Shown here piece after piece: positions 1,139-29,500 of a DNA stretch of 64,000 bases. Source of the stretch: a virus (taxonomy: Duplodnaviria > Heunggongvirae > Uroviricota > Caudoviricetes); the IMG/VR virus record IMGVR_UViG_646311924_000007, positions 32,001 to 96,000 of that record; one strand, 5' to 3'. Each line of letters begins with the position of its first letter. Position 1 is the stretch's first letter. Under the pieces are notes generated by a model. That model searched no databases. It had not been told where the DNA came from and saw nothing but the letters and a program-made list of their open reading frames with translations. Both the position numbers and the translations under genes were made by a program.

Positions 1139-1494
1139 AGCACCACGTCCTGTGTGATAGTTATATCCCTGATACGAATGGATATTTTCAACTTATCAAA
1201 AGCATCTCCCTCGGCTACTGACAAGCCAGAAATCGGTATGTCGGGTAAATCTACCGTCAGTTTTTGCAAAAGCATTGCCTCAACCGCAATTTGAACATGC
1301 GACAAGTTGGTCGGTTCGTGTTTAAACTGCGGTAAAACATTGCCCCATGACGGATCTCCGTATACCTCACCCTGATAAGTGTTTAGCCACTCATATAAAC
1401 GAGCGCCCCAGGCCTCCTCCTGGGACTCATACGTTTTTACGCCGGATAACTCCAGCGTCAGCAAAGGATCAATTTCGTTATTGTTGGCCATCAA
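1135..1494 (-). CDS. baseplate wedge protein (GpW/gp25-like)
   Basis: 119-aa ORF translationally coupled to both neighbours; size and the L.TY.GE..GDP.WG..LP motif resemble gp25/GpW-type proteins. Confidence 0.45.
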   Translation of the reverse strand: MMANNNEIDPLLTLELSGVKTYESQEEAWGARLYEWLNTYQGEVYGDPSWGNVLPQFKHEPTNLSHVQIAVEAMLLQKLTVDLPDIPISGLSVAEGDAFDKLKISIRIRDITITQDVVL

Positions 1495-4400
1495 TCAACT
1501 CTCGCGTAGTCATTCATCAACGGATCATCAATTGACAGTGGTACCGTGCGCATAACGCCCGGCTGAGGCGTGCTGACCTTTACGACAGTTCCCTGGCCTT
1601 TCGCCGAGTCTTTGGTGTGCTCTTCAATCCTGGCAAGCAATGAGGTCATCTGCGCAAACAGCCGCTTCGTTTCACCATCAAGTGAAACGGTATTATCAGC
1701 CAACTGCATTGTCGGCTTGGCACCGGAACCGCCAAGGTCACTAATAACCTGCCCGTCTATCTGCATACGACCGGTTGGTTGCTGCAAATCGTTGGCGGCA
1801 GTCGTCACCTGGGACGTGGAGGCTGGTTCAGGCGCATTATTTTTCCGCATCCCCGGCGAGTTGCGGAGTTTATCGAATAGTCCATCAATCCCCATTTGTG
1901 CGCCGAGCTGGTCAAAGTAACTTGAGTTGTTGGCCACCGGACGCGCCTCTTCAACTGGCATCGGGGTATCAACATACACATTGCCAGCTGCTGTTGCGGT
2001 CCCCTTCCCTCGTGCACGTTCTTCTAGCGTTCCCTGAACGACTTCCCGACGCATCCCCCGGCCATTCATGAATTTGTTGACCAGATCGTTAACGCCAACA
2101 GCATTGCCGATTTTGTCTACCAAACCGCCTTTCTCAAACGGGCTATCACCAGGGGTAAACGCCAGACCAGTAGACTGATCGATAACGGCGTTATCAGGTA
2201 GTGGTTCCCTCACTCCATATTGCGCCCCACCCTGTGCTCCTGCCCCAGGTGTATAGATTTCACCACCTAAATAGCGAGCACGATGAGTATTGACCTTGAT
2301 CGCGTACTCACGGTTTTCCTTCGATAAGTCACCGGTGCCTTTTTTCCACTTATTAATAGTGCCAAACCCAGCGTTATATGCAGTGATGGCCTCGTTTAAG
2401 TCTCCATTGGCTTGCTTCAGATACTTGCTCATGAGAAGAGCCGCAGCTTCTGCCGATTTCACAGGATCAAACGATTCACCTTCAGCTAAGCCAGTCTCTT
2501 CACGAGCAATGCCCGTGAACTGAAACATTCCTAGAGCACCAGTTTGTGATTTTGCGTACGGATTACCACCAGATTCAGTTGCAGCAATCGCGTAAAGAGT
2601 GCCTTCAGGAAGACCATATTTATTCTCCAGTTCAGCAAAATACGGAGCTAACTTATCGAGATTTGCCTTACCTTCAGCGCCAAGGCTTCCGACTTTTACA
2701 TCTAAGTTGCCATTATTGTAGGTATCAGCAGCTTTCTGAATGTCATTCCTGGTGCCGGTGGTATTACGCGACGATGATGACGAGCTATTTTGTCCAATAG
2801 CTGAATCAATTTTCCGCACCGCGCTATTGCCCGTTTCTACGGCATTTGCATTGATAATCTGATTGGCAGTTTCTTTAACTGTTTTATTGCTATCTTTCGC
2901 CGTGTCCAGTGCCGCATTTATCACGCGGGTAGCAATATTAGTCTGTTTAGCATCGGATTCAGTTTTAGAATCAGATGTCTCCTGGTGGCTATTAACCGGA
3001 GCTTTTAACTCTGGAGTGATTTCTTTTGCATTAGCCTCGCCGATCGGATTGGGTATTTTTGATACAATCATTGCCGCAGGGGTATTTTTAACGGCATCAA
3101 CCGCTGCATCTAATGCTTTACCGGGTAAATTTTTAACCCCATCCCAAATATTACCAGCCGCCTCTTTAATGTGTTTTCCTGGGTTCTTAATGAAGTCAAT
3201 TGCACTATCAATTGCATCACTGAAAACCTGTTTCAGGTTATCGACAGTAAAGAAGTCTTTTATGGCATCCAGCTTTTCAAGCAACTTATTAGATGTATCG
3301 CTAAACCATGCTGAAACAGCATCACCAATCTTTGCTGTGTAATCATCGAACTTGGTAGAAATGGTGTCGCCAAGGTTAGAAATATATGTTTCTAAGTTGG
3401 TAACCCCACTATCAATGGCCTGGGCAATACTTTCCGTCGAAAATGATTGCAACATATTGCCGATATCCTCAAATCCAAGTGATTTGAGAACATCACCAAT
3501 AGCACTGCTAATACCAGATACCAGTCCCCCCATATCGAGAACATTGGCTAACGTATAAGCGGCTTTTTGCTGGAATGATGGATCTTGTCCTGATTTAAGC
3601 CCAAACGCTCGACGTTGCGCTTCTGTATCATTCCAACCGGTTACCGCATCATAAATACCTCCAGCCACTGTGCCGACTAGGGGAATTGCGCGTAACGCCC
3701 CTTTACCAACTGCCTTTAATCCAAGTTTACCTGCTGCCCGGGCAGCCAAATCTCCGCCTTCATGGGCGAGAGTCTTCTTGCCACCACCGCGTAGCATTCC
3801 TACAAGTTTCTTTGCCCCCAGAGCGCCAAAAGCGAGTGCTCCAGCTTTTTTCAGCATGCCACGCCCCATTAACAACGACGCGACGCCACCGGCCCCCTTC
3901 CCTAACAGGCTAAATAGTTTGGACAGCAAGCCGCCCTTCTTTTTACCGGTGTTTTTGGCTATCTGATCAAGGGCGCGGAGAATCTTGTCATTGCCCTCTT
4001 TAATTTCGCTGGTCTGCTCCTGAAGTTCCTGAACCGTCCGTTTTTGGGTGTTAACCTGAACGACATCGGCACTATTTTGCGATTTACGCCTAAAAAAACC
4101 TTTTCTACGGCTGTTATCGTCATTGCCACGAATCACATCGGCAATAGACTTTCTGGCACCATTAAGCGATCCACCAACTTCTTTTGATATCCCGCCAAGC
4201 TCCTTCCCTGCTGCCCACAATGGACCAGCAACGGCATAACCTAACGCATCGACAGCACGAGTCTCTGAAGGGTTGCCTATGCCTTCAGCTACTTTTGACA
4301 GTTTTTTTAATAAACCTGATTCAGCATTTAGACGCTCATCATCCTCTTTGCGCCTGGCCTTTTCAGCACGTTCAGCACGGGCATCTTCCGCTGCGGCCTT

Positions 4401-4883
4401 ACTCCCTGACTTTCCAATAAAACGACCACGCGCATCGCGTTGGTTTTGGCTTTTTTGCGCACCGCCTTTTTGACCGAACATTTCGCGAGCGTGTTCGGCT
4501 GCTTCGGTCCGTTGCGCCTTTACATCTTCTGTTATAGCCTTCTTGCGTCGTTTTTTACCCTTTCGCGTAGTTGATTTGGCCTGCGGTTCCTGTAGAGCAA
4601 CATCCTCCTGAACTACACGAGAAACGTCCCCTAAATTAAGCCGTTTCATTGCCTCAACAATAGGGTCCACTGATGGCGCATTGGCCACAAAGTCTGGCCG
4701 GGAATTTTCGATTGTGCGATTTAATGCCGACACACTACGAGAGACAGGATCAACTGTAGCAACTCGCCCCCCTTTCAAATCTTCAACGGCTTCCCGAATA
4801 CCTGCAAGCTCTTCCAGCTCTTTTGCGCTGGCGGTTTCAACCGTCCTTATCACATCGTCAATGTTGGCGTTTTTTCTTTCCAT
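1491..4883 (-). CDS. sit: Sit-like tape-measure/internal virion protein with lytic transglycosylase domain
   Basis: 1130-aa ORF; SLT motif EGTLYAIAATESGGNPYAKSQTGALGMFQF; long Ala/Gly/Lys-rich central region; size close to P1 Sit. Confidence 0.85.
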   Translation of the reverse strand: MERKNANIDDVIRTVETASAKELEELAGIREAVEDLKGGRVATVDPVSRSVSALNRTIENSRPDFVANAPSVDPIVEAMKRLNLGDVSRVVQEDVALQEPQAKSTTRKGKKRRKKAITEDVKAQRTEAAEHAREMFGQKGGAQKSQNQRDARGRFIGKSGSKAAAEDARAERAEKARRKEDDERLNAESGLLKKLSKVAEGIGNPSETRAVDALGYAVAGPLWAAGKELGGISKEVGGSLNGARKSIADVIRGNDDNSRRKGFFRRKSQNSADVVQVNTQKRTVQELQEQTSEIKEGNDKILRALDQIAKNTGKKKGGLLSKLFSLLGKGAGGVASLLMGRGMLKKAGALAFGALGAKKLVGMLRGGGKKTLAHEGGDLAARAAGKLGLKAVGKGALRAIPLVGTVAGGIYDAVTGWNDTEAQRRAFGLKSGQDPSFQQKAAYTLANVLDMGGLVSGISSAIGDVLKSLGFEDIGNMLQSFSTESIAQAIDSGVTNLETYISNLGDTISTKFDDYTAKIGDAVSAWFSDTSNKLLEKLDAIKDFFTVDNLKQVFSDAIDSAIDFIKNPGKHIKEAAGNIWDGVKNLPGKALDAAVDAVKNTPAAMIVSKIPNPIGEANAKEITPELKAPVNSHQETSDSKTESDAKQTNIATRVINAALDTAKDSNKTVKETANQIINANAVETGNSAVRKIDSAIGQNSSSSSSRNTTGTRNDIQKAADTYNNGNLDVKVGSLGAEGKANLDKLAPYFAELENKYGLPEGTLYAIAATESGGNPYAKSQTGALGMFQFTGIAREETGLAEGESFDPVKSAEAAALLMSKYLKQANGDLNEAITAYNAGFGTINKWKKGTGDLSKENREYAIKVNTHRARYLGGEIYTPGAGAQGGAQYGVREPLPDNAVIDQSTGLAFTPGDSPFEKGGLVDKIGNAVGVNDLVNKFMNGRGMRREVVQGTLEERARGKGTATAAGNVYVDTPMPVEEARPVANNSSYFDQLGAQMGIDGLFDKLRNSPGMRKNNAPEPASTSQVTTAANDLQQPTGRMQIDGQVISDLGGSGAKPTMQLADNTVSLDGETKRLFAQMTSLLARIEEHTKDSAKGQGTVVKVSTPQPGVMRTVPLSIDDPLMNDYARVD

Positions 4884-6482: not shown

Positions 6483-7073
<591 letters not shown>

Positions 7074-7107
7074 TTAACCGATTCTACGAGTAGTCATTTG
7101 TGACAGG

Positions 7108-7584
7108 TCATTTTGCGCGCTTCAGGCAGCCATCTTCAGGTGCCGCGTTGAAAAGCTCTGCGGCCTTACGTAGCGTAAATGTTGCGATTTTTTTTCCGTC
7201 TACGTATGCATCGAATGTTTTAACTTCCATATCAGGGGTATCTGACCAAAAACCATACCAGTAACTATCACCCACAGAGGAACCGATAGAACTGATAGGA
7301 TATTCATCATCACCAACTTTCAGCGTTATTTGTTCTTTTTTAGCATCAAATGACTCACCACCTGGTTCTGTTTTCATGAGTGTGAGTAGTCGTGTTCCTA
7401 CTTGATTGGGATCCGTATTATTAAATCCAACATCGCACTCAAATGTAAGCGTATAATTATCTTTGCTGGAAACAGCATAAGAGCGAACACCATGAGTCTC
7501 GCTGGTGGACCATTTGCTTACATTTGCCATTGACGAAAAAGGAGTAAGCAAAGCAAGAATTAGAAAAAATCGTTTGATGCGCAT
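7108..7584 (-). CDS. secreted protein with N-terminal signal peptide
   Basis: Start chosen at ATG 7584 (MRIKRFFLILALLTPFSSMA) preceded by AGGAG; ORF track gives a longer frame to 7611. Confidence 0.55.
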   Translation of the reverse strand: MRIKRFFLILALLTPFSSMANVSKWSTSETHGVRSYAVSSKDNYTLTFECDVGFNNTDPNQVGTRLLTLMKTEPGGESFDAKKEQITLKVGDDEYPISSIGSSVGDSYWYGFWSDTPDMEVKTFDAYVDGKKIATFTLRKAAELFNAAPEDGCLKRAK

Positions 7585-7648
7585 TAATTTATCTCCTTTG
7601 TATATTAACAATTATTATCAATATTTTAATTAATTACCCATCATATAT

Positions 7649-8296
7649 TTACCATTCATAGGGTAAATTAAGCGCTTTTAAACCTTGCTGGAAGGTATTA
7701 AGTGAGCCGTTCTTTTGTTGTTCCATTTTTTCGCGTGCCGCTTTCTCATACTGCTCCATCCGTTGGTTATACTCTTGCAATTCTTCTGGAGAGAGGTTTC
7801 CCATTGGGGAGTTTGTACCCGGCCCCCTGGCCCGCTCTTCAAGCGTACCCTGAACGTTTTGATAGCGCATTCCTGGGGCATTTCTGATTGAGTCAATGCC
7901 ATTTCTTCCAACATCTTCTTTATTAACGGCATTGCTCGCCACCAGCACCCCCCAGCTAGGGATAGCAAAATCAGGAGCGGTTTCGCATGCCTTTACCATA
8001 TAATCGAAAGAGCTTCGATTGATCTCGTTTGCGTCGGGATTTAATAGGCGAGAATATTGATATTTAGCATTTTCGTTGGTTGCGACTTTATACAGTTCTT
8101 GCTGCACCATCGCTTCAGAAAGTTTAAGGCGTTTCATATCTGACAGTAACTTCTTGCGCATGGATTCGTCTTGACTGACAGCAAAGCCGTAAACGTGCCC
8201 AAGGTATTTCGTATAATCGGTACAAATCTCCTTTACGCTTGATGCTGCATTAACAGTCCCAGCCATAAATAATAACGGTAGTAATAGTTTTCTCAT
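7649..8296 (-). CDS. secreted protein sharing a GMR..VQGTLEERARG.GT motif with Sit
   Basis: Start chosen at ATG 8296 (MRKLLLPLLFMAGTVNAASS signal peptide); first gene of minus-strand operon diverging from operator at 8403. Confidence 0.55.
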   Translation of the reverse strand: MRKLLLPLLFMAGTVNAASSVKEICTDYTKYLGHVYGFAVSQDESMRKKLLSDMKRLKLSEAMVQQELYKVATNENAKYQYSRLLNPDANEINRSSFDYMVKACETAPDFAIPSWGVLVASNAVNKEDVGRNGIDSIRNAPGMRYQNVQGTLEERARGPGTNSPMGNLSPEELQEYNQRMEQYEKAAREKMEQQKNGSLNTFQQGLKALNLPYEW

Positions 8297-8402
8297 TATA
8301 ACCTCACCTGCCTTATAACCCATTTAGGGTACATATTTTCGCCTTTAAAAAAAAGAGGTTATTAGATCCAATTGTGTATTTATTAAGCATATAATGCTCT
8401 AA

Positions 8403-8419
8403 TAAATTTGTATTTTTAA
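8403..8419 (+). promoter_or_regulatory. C1 repressor operator-like site (AATGCTCTAATAAATTT)
   Basis: 16/17 match to recalled P1 C1 operator consensus ATTGCTCTAATAAATTT; in divergent intergenic region. Confidence 0.6.
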
Positions 8420-8723
8420 GTCGCGAATGCTATCTTTTCGCATCATATTGACCTTTTAATCGTTCAGGCTTATAGTTCCGCCGTCGTAGCAAATTCTGCG
8501 ACCGGGTTTAGCAGCCTGAATGATTGTGCGGACAGCCGCAGATATCCGATATTGCGGTATTTTTGTGTCCGTAAAACCGCGTTACGCCCAAATTATGGTG
8601 GGGCGTGATGGGGAGGCTTCGGCCTGCTGGTTTCACAATCGCCAGTCTGCTAACCCCGTCACGTCCTGCCACCTGTTTAGCAGCGGGTAGCAGGTTGTTA
8701 AACCTGATTGTGAGGCCGTAACT

Positions 8724-8945
8724 ATGGTTAATGCCAATCCTTGCGCACGCCAAGAATTCATCTGGCGTTTCTATTCCTGTAAAAAACACCACTATCACTT
8801 CGTTATCGCAGCAACAGAAGACGAAGCACGCTCTCAATTGCCTGATGGCCCCTGCATTTTTACTGCCCGTTTTTCAACTAACTCGCGCAATTCACTTAGT
8901 TACTGGAACCTCCCCTTCTCTGCCGACGTTCAGGGGGGTTTATGA
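8724..8945 (+). CDS. Icd-like small protein (host cell division inhibitor family)
   Basis: 73-aa ORF with EFIWRFYSC..HYHFVIAATEDEARSQLPDGPCIF; stop overlaps ATG of next gene (ATGA); paralog at 61646. Confidence 0.65.
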   Translation: MVNANPCARQEFIWRFYSCKKHHYHFVIAATEDEARSQLPDGPCIFTARFSTNSRNSLSYWNLPFSADVQGGL

Positions 8946-9979
8946 AAAAACCTCTCGTCACCCGTAATGACATAGCCGAAGCTATCGCCCTGCATACTGC
9001 CTGTATGCCGACACGGGAGATCCCCGGCGCAATTGCCAACTATTTCATGATAACCAGACGTTTTTATACCCGAACAGATAAGGCTGTGATCAACAAGCTA
9101 CTGATAGCCGAGATCAGGGATTATTTGATTGAACAAGGACGTCTACGTTACGCAACAGTGGCAGCAGAAATGAGAAAGGAGGCACATAGAATGACCGGTA
9201 ATAATTTGAATGTTGAAAAAACAGCACCTGTTACGTCAGCTACGCCAGCACCAGCCGTGAATATCATCCCCAACACCGGAGACACAATCGACAGCCTGAC
9301 ACTGTTAAAGATGGTCAATGAAGCGCGTAAGTTATGTGGGGAACCAGAGGTTCGGAACAACAAATTCATAGAAAAAATACTCGATGAGCTTGATGGTGAG
9401 CACTACACAAAAAGTGTAGTGGAAAAAATGAACAAAACATCAATGCTTGTCATAACCATGACCTACAAACAAGCCCTGCGAGTCGCCGCACGCGAATCAA
9501 AAGCCGTCCGCCGTTCGCTGATCGACAAACTGGAAGAATTGCAGCAGGCAAACTCCCCTACCCCATCGATCCCCCAAACATTACCAGAAGCTCTACGCCT
9601 GGCTGCCGAGTTGGCAGAACAGAAAATGCAGTTGGAACAACAGCTGGTGGCCGCAGCCCCTAAAGTCGATTTTGCCGACCGGGTATCAGCGGCTAATGGA
9701 ATCCTGATCGGGAACTTTGCAAAGGTCGTTGGACTTAAGCAAAACGCCCTTTTCTCATGGTTGCGCCAGAACGGCATTCTCATGGCTTTTGGTGCGCGCA
9801 AAAACGTACCGCGCCAACAGTACATCAACGCCGGATATTTCACGGTGAAAGAAGTGGTGCTGGATGATGAAGATGGCTACCAGATACGGCTGACGCCCCA
9901 ATTAACGGGTAAAGGCCAGCAGTGGTTAACTCGCAAGCTACTTGATGCTGGTTTGTTAAAACCAGTAGCAATAGGTTAA
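8942..9979 (+). CDS. antirepressor-like protein with KilA C-terminal (KilAC/ANT) domain
   Basis: C-terminus LPEALRLAAELAEQK..APKVDFADRV..GKGQQWL is near-identical in motif to the KilA C-terminus at 10144; translationally coupled to icd-like gene. Confidence 0.65.
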   Translation: MKKPLVTRNDIAEAIALHTACMPTREIPGAIANYFMITRRFYTRTDKAVINKLLIAEIRDYLIEQGRLRYATVAAEMRKEAHRMTGNNLNVEKTAPVTSATPAPAVNIIPNTGDTIDSLTLLKMVNEARKLCGEPEVRNNKFIEKILDELDGEHYTKSVVEKMNKTSMLVITMTYKQALRVAARESKAVRRSLIDKLEELQQANSPTPSIPQTLPEALRLAAELAEQKMQLEQQLVAAAPKVDFADRVSAANGILIGNFAKVVGLKQNALFSWLRQNGILMAFGARKNVPRQQYINAGYFTVKEVVLDDEDGYQIRLTPQLTGKGQQWLTRKLLDAGLLKPVAIG

Positions 9980-29200: not shown

Positions 29201-29319
29201 TCAGAGAGCTTTATCATGACAGTGGCTTCAGAGTGGAACCTCTTTTTGCCAGACGTTCTGTGTCTTGTAAGGGGGACACTCGAGGTGTAGCTCATGACGT
29301 TTTGGGTATATTGCTCTAA
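26278..29319 (+). CDS. dmt: bifunctional DNA methyltransferase Dmt (C5-cytosine MTase plus Dam-like N6-adenine MTase) carrying an intein
   Basis: GTG start overlapping hrdC stop; C5 motifs IV ([12 protein letters not shown], split), VI (ENV), IX ([16 protein letters not shown]), X (GNSMAIPV); Dam-like FKWAGGK and DPPY in C-terminal half. Confidence 0.85.
26509..27531 (+). mobile_element. intein with LAGLIDADG homing-endonuclease domain (341 aa) inside dmt
   Basis: Starts Cys (CFTAGHMVL), block B TTNDHPF, two LAGLIDADG motifs ([22 protein letters not shown]), ends [16 protein letters not shown] then +1 Cys; removal rejoins GGTP and CQAFSIAG. Confidence 0.8.
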
Positions 29320-29326
29320 TAAATTT
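29310..29326 (+). promoter_or_regulatory. C1 operator, perfect consensus ATTGCTCTAATAAATTT
   Basis: 17/17 match; overlaps last codons and TAA stop of dmt, upstream of tRNA/plp/ban region. Confidence 0.7.
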
Positions 29327-29500
29327 ATTAGTGTAATATCACCTCAATGAATCGTGATTTATAGAGCGATTTAGCTGTTAGCCGCGACAGGCGCGGCGGT
29401 AAGCATGGCTGGGCCTAGTCCTCCCAGACAAACCACCGAGTTGCCAGGTTGACCATGCGCCTAAGTGGCAACGCCGAAGTGCGTTACGAGCGTCCAGTTT

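Follow-up and report, generated by a model that had tools for sequence, protein, structure and literature searches.

A Sit-like peptide in a secreted SimA-family protein of a P1-like phage: a candidate tape-measure decoy at the superimmunity locus

How the DNA of contractile-tailed phages such as P1 passes over the periplasm and the inner membrane, and which contacts the C-terminus of the ejected tape-measure protein makes there, is poorly understood; the closest described parallels to the gene presented here are phage-encoded envelope proteins that stop genome entry at the tape-measure step. The exclusion protein Imm of phage T4 binds its tape-measure protein (bioRxiv 10.64898/2026.03.06.709160), and Ltp of Streptococcus thermophilus phage TP-J34 and gp15 of HK97 are exclusion proteins acting on tape-measure proteins, as cited in PMC10883804. 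These are membrane proteins or lipoproteins that bind the tape measure and share no sequence with it. Here we describe open reading frame (ORF) 215, the gene of a secreted SimA-family protein in a P1-like phage (Punavirus), of which a stretch of 64,000 nucleotides was analysed (the window). ORF215 is tied to a tape-measure protein, Sit, by sequence, the shared peptide being the sole evidence of that link, and it differs from the three proteins above in that it is predicted to be soluble and periplasmic and contains a copy of a tape-measure segment. Searches of Pfam, NCBIfam, PADLOC and PDB folds found no homology of ORF215 to exclusion proteins of the Imm, Ltp or gp15 type.

By position, the locus compares with the sim (superimmunity) region of P1, a known hypervariable region of P1-like phage-plasmids (PMC9603915). 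There, simA-simB-simC, with simC annotated "superimmunity", are flanked by pmgC and the late promoter LPsit on one side and by the C1 operator Oc4 and c4-icd-ant on the other; in P7 the same slot holds upf50.5 and upf50.0. ORF215 lies in this slot, on the same strand and behind near-identical upstream DNA (operator and predicted PsimA region), and all cassette variants at the locus encode signal-peptide proteins. In contrast to this shared setting, ORF215 has no similarity to P1 SimB or SimC (BLASTP with SimC gave no alignment better than E = 28), and SimC, unlike ORF215, has no similarity to Sit. The superimmunity annotation in P1 belongs to SimC.

The preliminary description of this stretch had noticed strings common to the protein at 7649-8296 and Sit, and these are indeed present: in a pairwise BLASTP comparison ORF215 and the Sit of the window share 23 identities over 47 positions (E = 9e-9), and against all six-frame ORFs of the window the same match reaches E = 4e-7. 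Positions 929-972 of the Sit-family hidden Markov model phrog_2533 match residues 129-171 of ORF215 (E = 3e-7), D6-like Sit proteins align to it with up to 55 bits and 56% identity over 48 residues, and in four diverged phages the SimA-like protein matches its cognate Sit with E = 9e-9, 3e-10, 5e-9 and 8e-8, the match being significant in every lineage whose SimA carries the full motif. The consensus of the shared peptide is F-x-N-x-x-G-M-R-x-x-x-V-Q-G-T-L-x-E-R-A-x-G-x-G-T, represented by the 23-residue core NAPGMRYQNVQGTLEERARGPGT in ORF215 (residues 139-161, window 7814-7882) and NGRGMRREVVQGTLEERARGKGT in Sit (residues 940-962, window 1998-2066). Of the six-frame ORFs of at least 50 residues in the window, only ORF215 (one occurrence) and Sit (two) contain its N..GMR core.

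Sit is the tape-measure protein of P1, with a lytic transglycosylase (SLT) domain at about residues 750-900; in cryo-electron microscopy (cryo-EM) of P1 it is unresolved save for weak density inside the baseplate hub (PMC9024508, PMC12810830). The motif had been assigned to the N-terminal region of Sit. Since sit lies on the minus strand, low window coordinates correspond to the C-terminus and that placement was wrong: both copies (residues 940-962 and 1008-1016 of 1130) are in the C-terminal fifth, downstream of the SLT domain, copy 1 about 80 residues beyond it. The short second copy (LRNSPGMRKNN) falls within an insert of ~45 residues (Sit residues ~965-1016, window 1836-1990, minus strand) that is absent from D6-like Sit, and a distant Sit (P0046) has two fuller copies (KAEGMRHQVSAGTLAARS and DAEGMRHQVATGEGS). 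Judging from the P1-type insert and this double copy, the motif unit evidently duplicates within tape-measure proteins.

We searched a 64-position profile of the motif (HMMER) against 1.84 billion (1.84e9) representative proteins and obtained 10 matches at E <= 1e-3, all of them Sit-like tape-measure proteins, SimA-like proteins or fragments of these. The motif is private to these two families, and the search leads us to reject a common low-complexity pattern. ORF215 is not itself a Sit-family member, a family marked by a long helical ruler, hydrophobic glycine-rich segments, an SLT domain and a conserved C-terminal end (..DDPLMNDYARVD): only residues 129-171 match the 1130-position profile, and there is no SLT domain. 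Nor do proteins of the sim locus mimic Sit in general, because P1 SimB and SimC, P7 Upf50.0 and Upf50.5, ORF158 and YfjT-like proteins matched neither Sit nor any ORF of the window. The C-terminal tails of SimA proteins, compared with their own loci, gave no other match.

Homologs in other P1-like phages keep both copies of the motif, in five lineages. Sit homologs at 55%, 44% and 32% identity all retain it (e.g., FMNSRGMRHEVVQGTLAERAYGKGT, ARNAPGMRHQVATGSMADRAYGMGT), with the G, M, R, G, R and G columns invariant in 13 Sit homologs down to 32% identity in a region that is otherwise loosely conserved, and Sit variants with a different SLT module (P0039, P0034, L008) keep it unchanged. On the side of the SimA-like proteins, the motif is retained in four lineages besides that of the window, including the distant P0045/P0048 (APGMRHQAVKGSMAERARGDGT), where P0048 with P0043 represents the fifth lineage that retains both copies. 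Conservation within the SimA family extends over the N-domain and N[AS][PR]GMR[HQ]Q, N[AS][PR]GMR being near-invariant. The sequence beyond is built in modules, with V(Q/E)G(T/S)L.ERARG.G in some alleles and, right after GMR.Q, an unrelated tail containing Cys in others.

At the nucleotide level the two window copies are 61% identical, and third positions match in 12 of 30 codons. Nei-Gojobori estimates over all lineages gave a proportion of synonymous differences (pS) of 0.64-0.87, which is saturated, against a proportion of nonsynonymous differences (pN) of 0.19-0.29, and cognate SimA-Sit pairs were no closer at synonymous sites than other pairs. Saturated pS together with low pN means that the copies are old and that the peptide has been held by selection, with no recent homogenising by gene conversion; a recent duplication or gene conversion between sit and ORF215 was rejected on these grounds. 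In two distant P1-like phages the tail genes from bplB to pmgC are contiguous, with no sim/immI insertion, and Sit still has the motif. Because phages that lack a sim locus between bplB and pmgC retain it in Sit, the motif is ancestral to Sit, and SimA most likely acquired it by capture. One of the two phages, represented twice (L015 and L016, 100% identical over 5.6 kb; L016:10001-10531, L015:9618-12992), carries its SimA-like gene away from the tail genes, near rdgC, DNA methylase and dnaB-like genes, with the Sit-like motif retained. Cognate SimA and Sit copies were slightly more alike than other pairs over 26 residues (diagonal identity 83 vs a mean of 74.6, reached by 1 of 120 permutations), in a test designed after seeing the data and with n = 5 lineages; this covariation is suggestive, and we take it as a lead only.

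AlphaFold2 modelling of ORF215 with 19 family sequences predicts a helical N-domain, a disordered linker carrying the motif (residues 139-166, predicted local distance difference test (pLDDT) < 50) and a C-terminal helix. The motif is the sole conserved island in this otherwise variable, disordered linker. The N-domain has no fold relatives in Foldseek searches (E > 1 against PDB, E > 0.3 against BFVD). For Sit residues 730-1130, the model is confident in the SLT domain, and everything beyond about residue 874, the motif included, has pLDDT < 50; docking of the motif on the SLT domain is unsupported, as the predicted structure leaves the motif unplaced. A conserved island in a disordered variable region, purifying selection and restricted distribution are the features of a short linear interaction motif, and in this respect the earlier proposal of a common interaction or anchoring motif holds for interaction, anchoring having no specific support.

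Colicins contain natively disordered translocation epitopes such as the TolB and TonB boxes. By analogy, our motif is likewise short, conserved and disordered, lies in a protein that has to cross the periplasm and presumably recruits a periplasmic partner; it does not resemble those boxes in sequence, and P1 is not known to use Tol or Ton. The end-peptide of ORF215, LKALNLPYEW (residues 206-215, window 7652-7681, minus strand), is conserved in L004 and in the distant P0050 and may be another linear element. A pattern LK[AS]LNLP[YF](EW/KLY) is common to the window protein, L004 and P0050, the last of which lacks the VQGTLEERARG half; P7 Upf50.0 also ends in aromatic residues (..SSWW).

We tentatively favour the reading that the SimA-like protein brings about superinfection exclusion from the periplasm, as a decoy or competitor with a copy of a docking peptide of the ejected tape measure. 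ORF215 would be made in the lysogen and exported as a soluble protein to its periplasm from the variable sim cassette, where it would display the Sit-like peptide on a flexible linker behind the helical N-domain. The C-terminal region of Sit, at the baseplate end of the tail, is the first part of Sit to reach the periplasm on infection, and its peptide would dock on a partner needed for genome delivery, which may be a further ejected phage protein or a component of the host's periplasm or inner membrane. A resident SimA-like protein presenting the same peptide in excess would compete for that presumed common partner, with the expected outcome that DNA entry of superinfecting P1-like phages is blocked after adsorption. 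Since the peptide is private to an ejected virion protein and to an exported protein of the same compartment, encoded at a superimmunity locus, a shared docking peptide and partner would be the most economical explanation; the gene also stands where P1 has simB/simC, with P1 simA as its remnant. A more general formulation, exclusion by self-mimicry, in which a secreted copy of the phage's own docking peptide saturates a periplasmic partner (host or phage) needed by every incoming relative, is possible but rather doubtful; were it true, the peptide would point directly to an envelope factor for P1 DNA entry.

Several observations weigh against the decoy. Many SimA-like alleles keep the N..GMR.Q half only, VQGTLEERARG being replaced by unrelated Cys-containing tails, so that the full motif is dispensable in at least some alleles. 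The covariation was weaker with a longer comparison window or other scoring (3, 5 and 10 of 120), and a matrix of BLAST bit scores showed no clear cognate preference. P1 SimC, the annotated superimmunity protein of the locus, shares nothing with Sit or ORF215, and mimicry is thus not a general property of the locus; PADLOC defence models gave no match to ORF215; and repression by the adjacent C1 operator, if real, would leave ORF215 silent in lysogens.

Exclusion directed at the tape measure is already established through T4 Imm, Ltp and HK97 gp15; what would be new is a protein that carries a copy of a tape-measure segment. A conserved peptide of 25-50 residues, present both in a tape measure and in a secreted prophage protein, offers a concrete handle on DNA delivery. 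If the decoy reading is true, superinfection exclusion gains a new principle, imitation of the very protein by which the invader delivers its DNA, and a function is assigned to a gene of many P1-like phage-plasmids of E. coli, Salmonella and Klebsiella. A literature search found no mention of the SimA-Sit similarity or of simA as the remnant of a longer gene, a prior mention in the P1 genome paper being possible.

The same homology, conservation and disorder data suit a reading in which the motif serves self-association or assembly, between Sit molecules or between Sit and the hub, spike or tube proteins of the ejected complex, and in which the SimA-like protein acts as a poison subunit, binding incoming phage proteins at the motif's natural partner site and jamming the envelope conduit. 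Lineage-specific covariation, suggestive as it is, fits a phage-encoded partner that varies by lineage; the motif is repeated in some Sit proteins (two copies in the P1 type and in P0046), as is often seen in assembly or oligomerisation elements; and T4 Imm binds its own tape-measure protein directly. We nevertheless hold both the assembly role and the jamming to be unlikely, given that Sit is unresolved in the P1 baseplate by cryo-EM (PMC12810830), that the AlphaFold2 monomer shows no intramolecular docking of the motif and that the covariation is weak. Exclusion may also play no primary part in it. The peptide would then be a handle for some component of the host envelope (for example peptidoglycan, a periplasmic chaperone or a protease), and the SimA-like protein would have a role in lysogenic conversion or in the envelope, or would compete, as a substrate, for a protease by which Sit is processed at GMR. 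Predicted periplasmic targeting and a disordered conserved peptide agree with such a handle, the short invariant core (N..GMR.Q) is present in every allele whatever its tail, as in a recognition or cleavage site, and the HK97 tape-measure protein reportedly needs a periplasmic chaperone (Cumby 2015, as cited in PMC10883804). However, no related motif turned up in any host protein in the profile search, the genomic position speaks rather for exclusion, and processing of P1 Sit at the motif is not described in PMC9024508 or PMC12810830; we therefore regard the host-binding handle as improbable, and the conversion, envelope or substrate roles as improbable too.

In favour of an evolutionary relic, that is, a sit fragment recombined into nearby simA and kept without shared function, are the closeness of the two genes (about 5 kb apart, on the same strand) and the visible mosaicism of the sim cassette and of the SimA C-termini. 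Such a relic is very unlikely in view of the saturated synonymous sites, of the conservation of the peptide in both families over five lineages, of its being the only conserved island in a variable disordered linker, and of the lineage in which the SimA-like gene is far from sit and still keeps the motif. T4 Spackle (Sp) is a periplasmic inhibitor of the gp5 tail lysozyme, and ORF215 resembles it as a small helical secreted phage protein that would meet an incoming muralytic tail component in the periplasm. By that model, the peptide would occupy or regulate the SLT domain in the virion and its secreted copy would inhibit the incoming Sit enzyme, for which the position of the motif ~80 residues after the SLT domain and the build of ORF215 (small, helical, predicted periplasmic, with two conserved cysteines) can be adduced. 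Unlike Spackle, ORF215 has no fold or sequence match to solved structures; moreover, the model of Sit residues 730-1130 combines a confident SLT domain with an unplaced, undocked motif (pLDDT < 50), and the motif is unchanged in Sit proteins whose SLT module has been swapped (P0039, P0034, L008). Autoinhibitor mimicry is thus most unlikely of all.

Table 1. Features of ORF215, Sit and the sim locus, with positions in the window.
Feature	Position	Strand	Basis or remark
ORF215 (full-length SimA-family secreted protein, PHROG 3933)	7649..8296	-	215 aa; translation, phrog_3933 E=2e-136
ORF215 predicted signal peptide, aa 1-17, MRKLLLPLLFMAGTVNA	8246..8296	-	predicted cleavage after VNA, no lipobox
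ORF215 helical N-domain (predicted), aa 19-130	7907..8242	-	pLDDT 87-96; invariant Cys25, Cys104
Sit-like module of ORF215, aa 122-173	7778..7933	-	BLASTP to own Sit E=9e-9; pLDDT<50
ORF215 C-terminal helix (predicted), aa 170-196	7709..7789	-	AlphaFold2 secondary structure; end-peptide just beyond
sit, tail tape-measure protein of 1130 aa that includes a lytic transglycosylase domain	1491..4883	-	96% identical to P1 Sit
Sit SLT (lytic transglycosylase) domain, aa 748-857	2313..2642	-	PF01464 E=7e-27; AlphaFold2 pLDDT 80-94
Sit motif copy 1, aa 927-969	1977..2105	-	core NGRGMRREVVQGTLEERARGKGT; pLDDT<50
Sit short second copy NSPGMRKNN, aa 1008-1016	1836..1862	-	E=0.014 pairwise
P1-like simA 5' part	8180-8296 vs P1 L002:8413-8571	-	remnant comparison
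Overlapping +1 ORF, 96 aa	7678-7968	-	receives frameshifts of 205-aa database entries
ORF158, secreted YfjT-family-like protein (phrog_3429)	7108..7584	-	conserved next gene after SimA-like genes
C1 operator-like site AATGCTCTAATAAATTT, equivalent to P1 Oc4/Op51	8393..8409	+	1 mismatch; divergent intergenic region

Over 7000-9000, the window and Escherichia phage vB_EcoM-Ro157c2YLVW share 96.7% identity; both genes carry the label "hypothetical protein" in that phage, and P1 and P7 align with the flanks only of this interval. ORF215 belongs to the SimA family ("simA domain protein"), the phrog_3933 profile covering residues 1-215, and has 27 homologs at 47-99% identity. A strong Shine-Dalgarno sequence (AGGTGAGG) lies 5 nt 5' of its ATG at 8296. 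As read from the sequence, its N-terminus (MRKLLLPLLFMAGTVNA, cleaved before AS) is a putative Sec-type signal peptide with a basic n-region, a hydrophobic core and an AxA-type site, and the alignment shows the signal peptide to be kept throughout the family. The SimA of P1 (52 residues, MSYKAGEVIMRKLLLPLLFMAGTVNAASSVKEICTDYTKYLGHVYAFAINDY) agrees with ORF215 over its first ~36 residues and then ends in a few unrelated ones; its N-terminus (MSYKAGEVIMRKLLLPLLFMAGTVNAASSVKEICTDYTKYLGHVY...) is identical with the start of ORF215, and the locus and the upstream region are also the same. Because P1 SimA matches the N-terminus, the upstream DNA is near-identical and the downstream border is common, ORF215 is the full-length form of P1 SimA and the 52-residue P1 simA its 5' remnant, most of the gene having been replaced in P1 by the simB/simC cassette; the orphan P1 simA is thus explained. 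By tblastn, the ORF215 gene or its 5' remnant is found in 266 P1-like plasmids of Escherichia, Salmonella, Klebsiella and Shigella. The gene is full-length in 83 of these, and among the matches listed most others cover residues 1-48 only, which suggests that the simA 5' end is a recombination anchor for cassette exchange.

Pfam, NCBIfam and PADLOC defence models assigned no family to ORF215. A hit to the PTP-like phytase family (PF14566) was judged spurious: it scores 26.6 bits against a cut-off of 27 and covers profile positions 46-132 only, no catalytic C-x5-R loop is present (C25 in CTDYTKY and C104 in CETAPDF have no R at +6), and the predicted all-helical model is unlike the PTP fold in PDB searches. 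Four database "variants" of 205 residues (P0002, P0004, P0007, P0017) result from a shift of the ORF215 frame into the +1 ORF that overlaps it and are not true alleles; these entries are assembly errors or pseudogenes and represent no real alternative product.

Among the Sit proteins, P0039 is a mosaic, near-identical to the P1 type outside residues ~700-900 and with a different SLT module there, as in P0034 and L008 (window 2313-2700, minus strand); the SLT enzyme module is swapped independently of the flanking motif region. A C-terminal Sit fragment whose source is labelled "Bacillus altitudinis" (P0037) is probably a contamination or a mislabelled assembly.

The downstream border of the sim cassette, just before LPsit, is common to the window, P1 and P7. 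The cassette borders are sharp (window ~7050-7105 and ~8190-8400): the window, P1 and P7 have identical sequence that starts at the LPsit hairpin region, and at the other border P1 homology stops inside simA codon ~37 and P7 homology right after the C1 operator. The PF27224 (YfjT) genes of L010 and L004 show 57% and 34% identity, respectively, to ORF158, and the order of a SimA-like and then a YfjT-like gene is conserved in D6- and P1-like prophages L004-L011. The operator-like site in front of ORF215 lies 97 nt upstream of its ATG. A C1-controlled operon, as the preliminary description had it, is not established, since this operator (Oc4/Op51) is annotated in P1 and P7 as controlling the divergent c4-icd-ant operon. 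Overall, the window contains 12 C1 operator-like sites with up to 3 mismatches, against 0.34 expected, as in P1. One pair of these sites overlaps on opposite strands, at 29310-29337.

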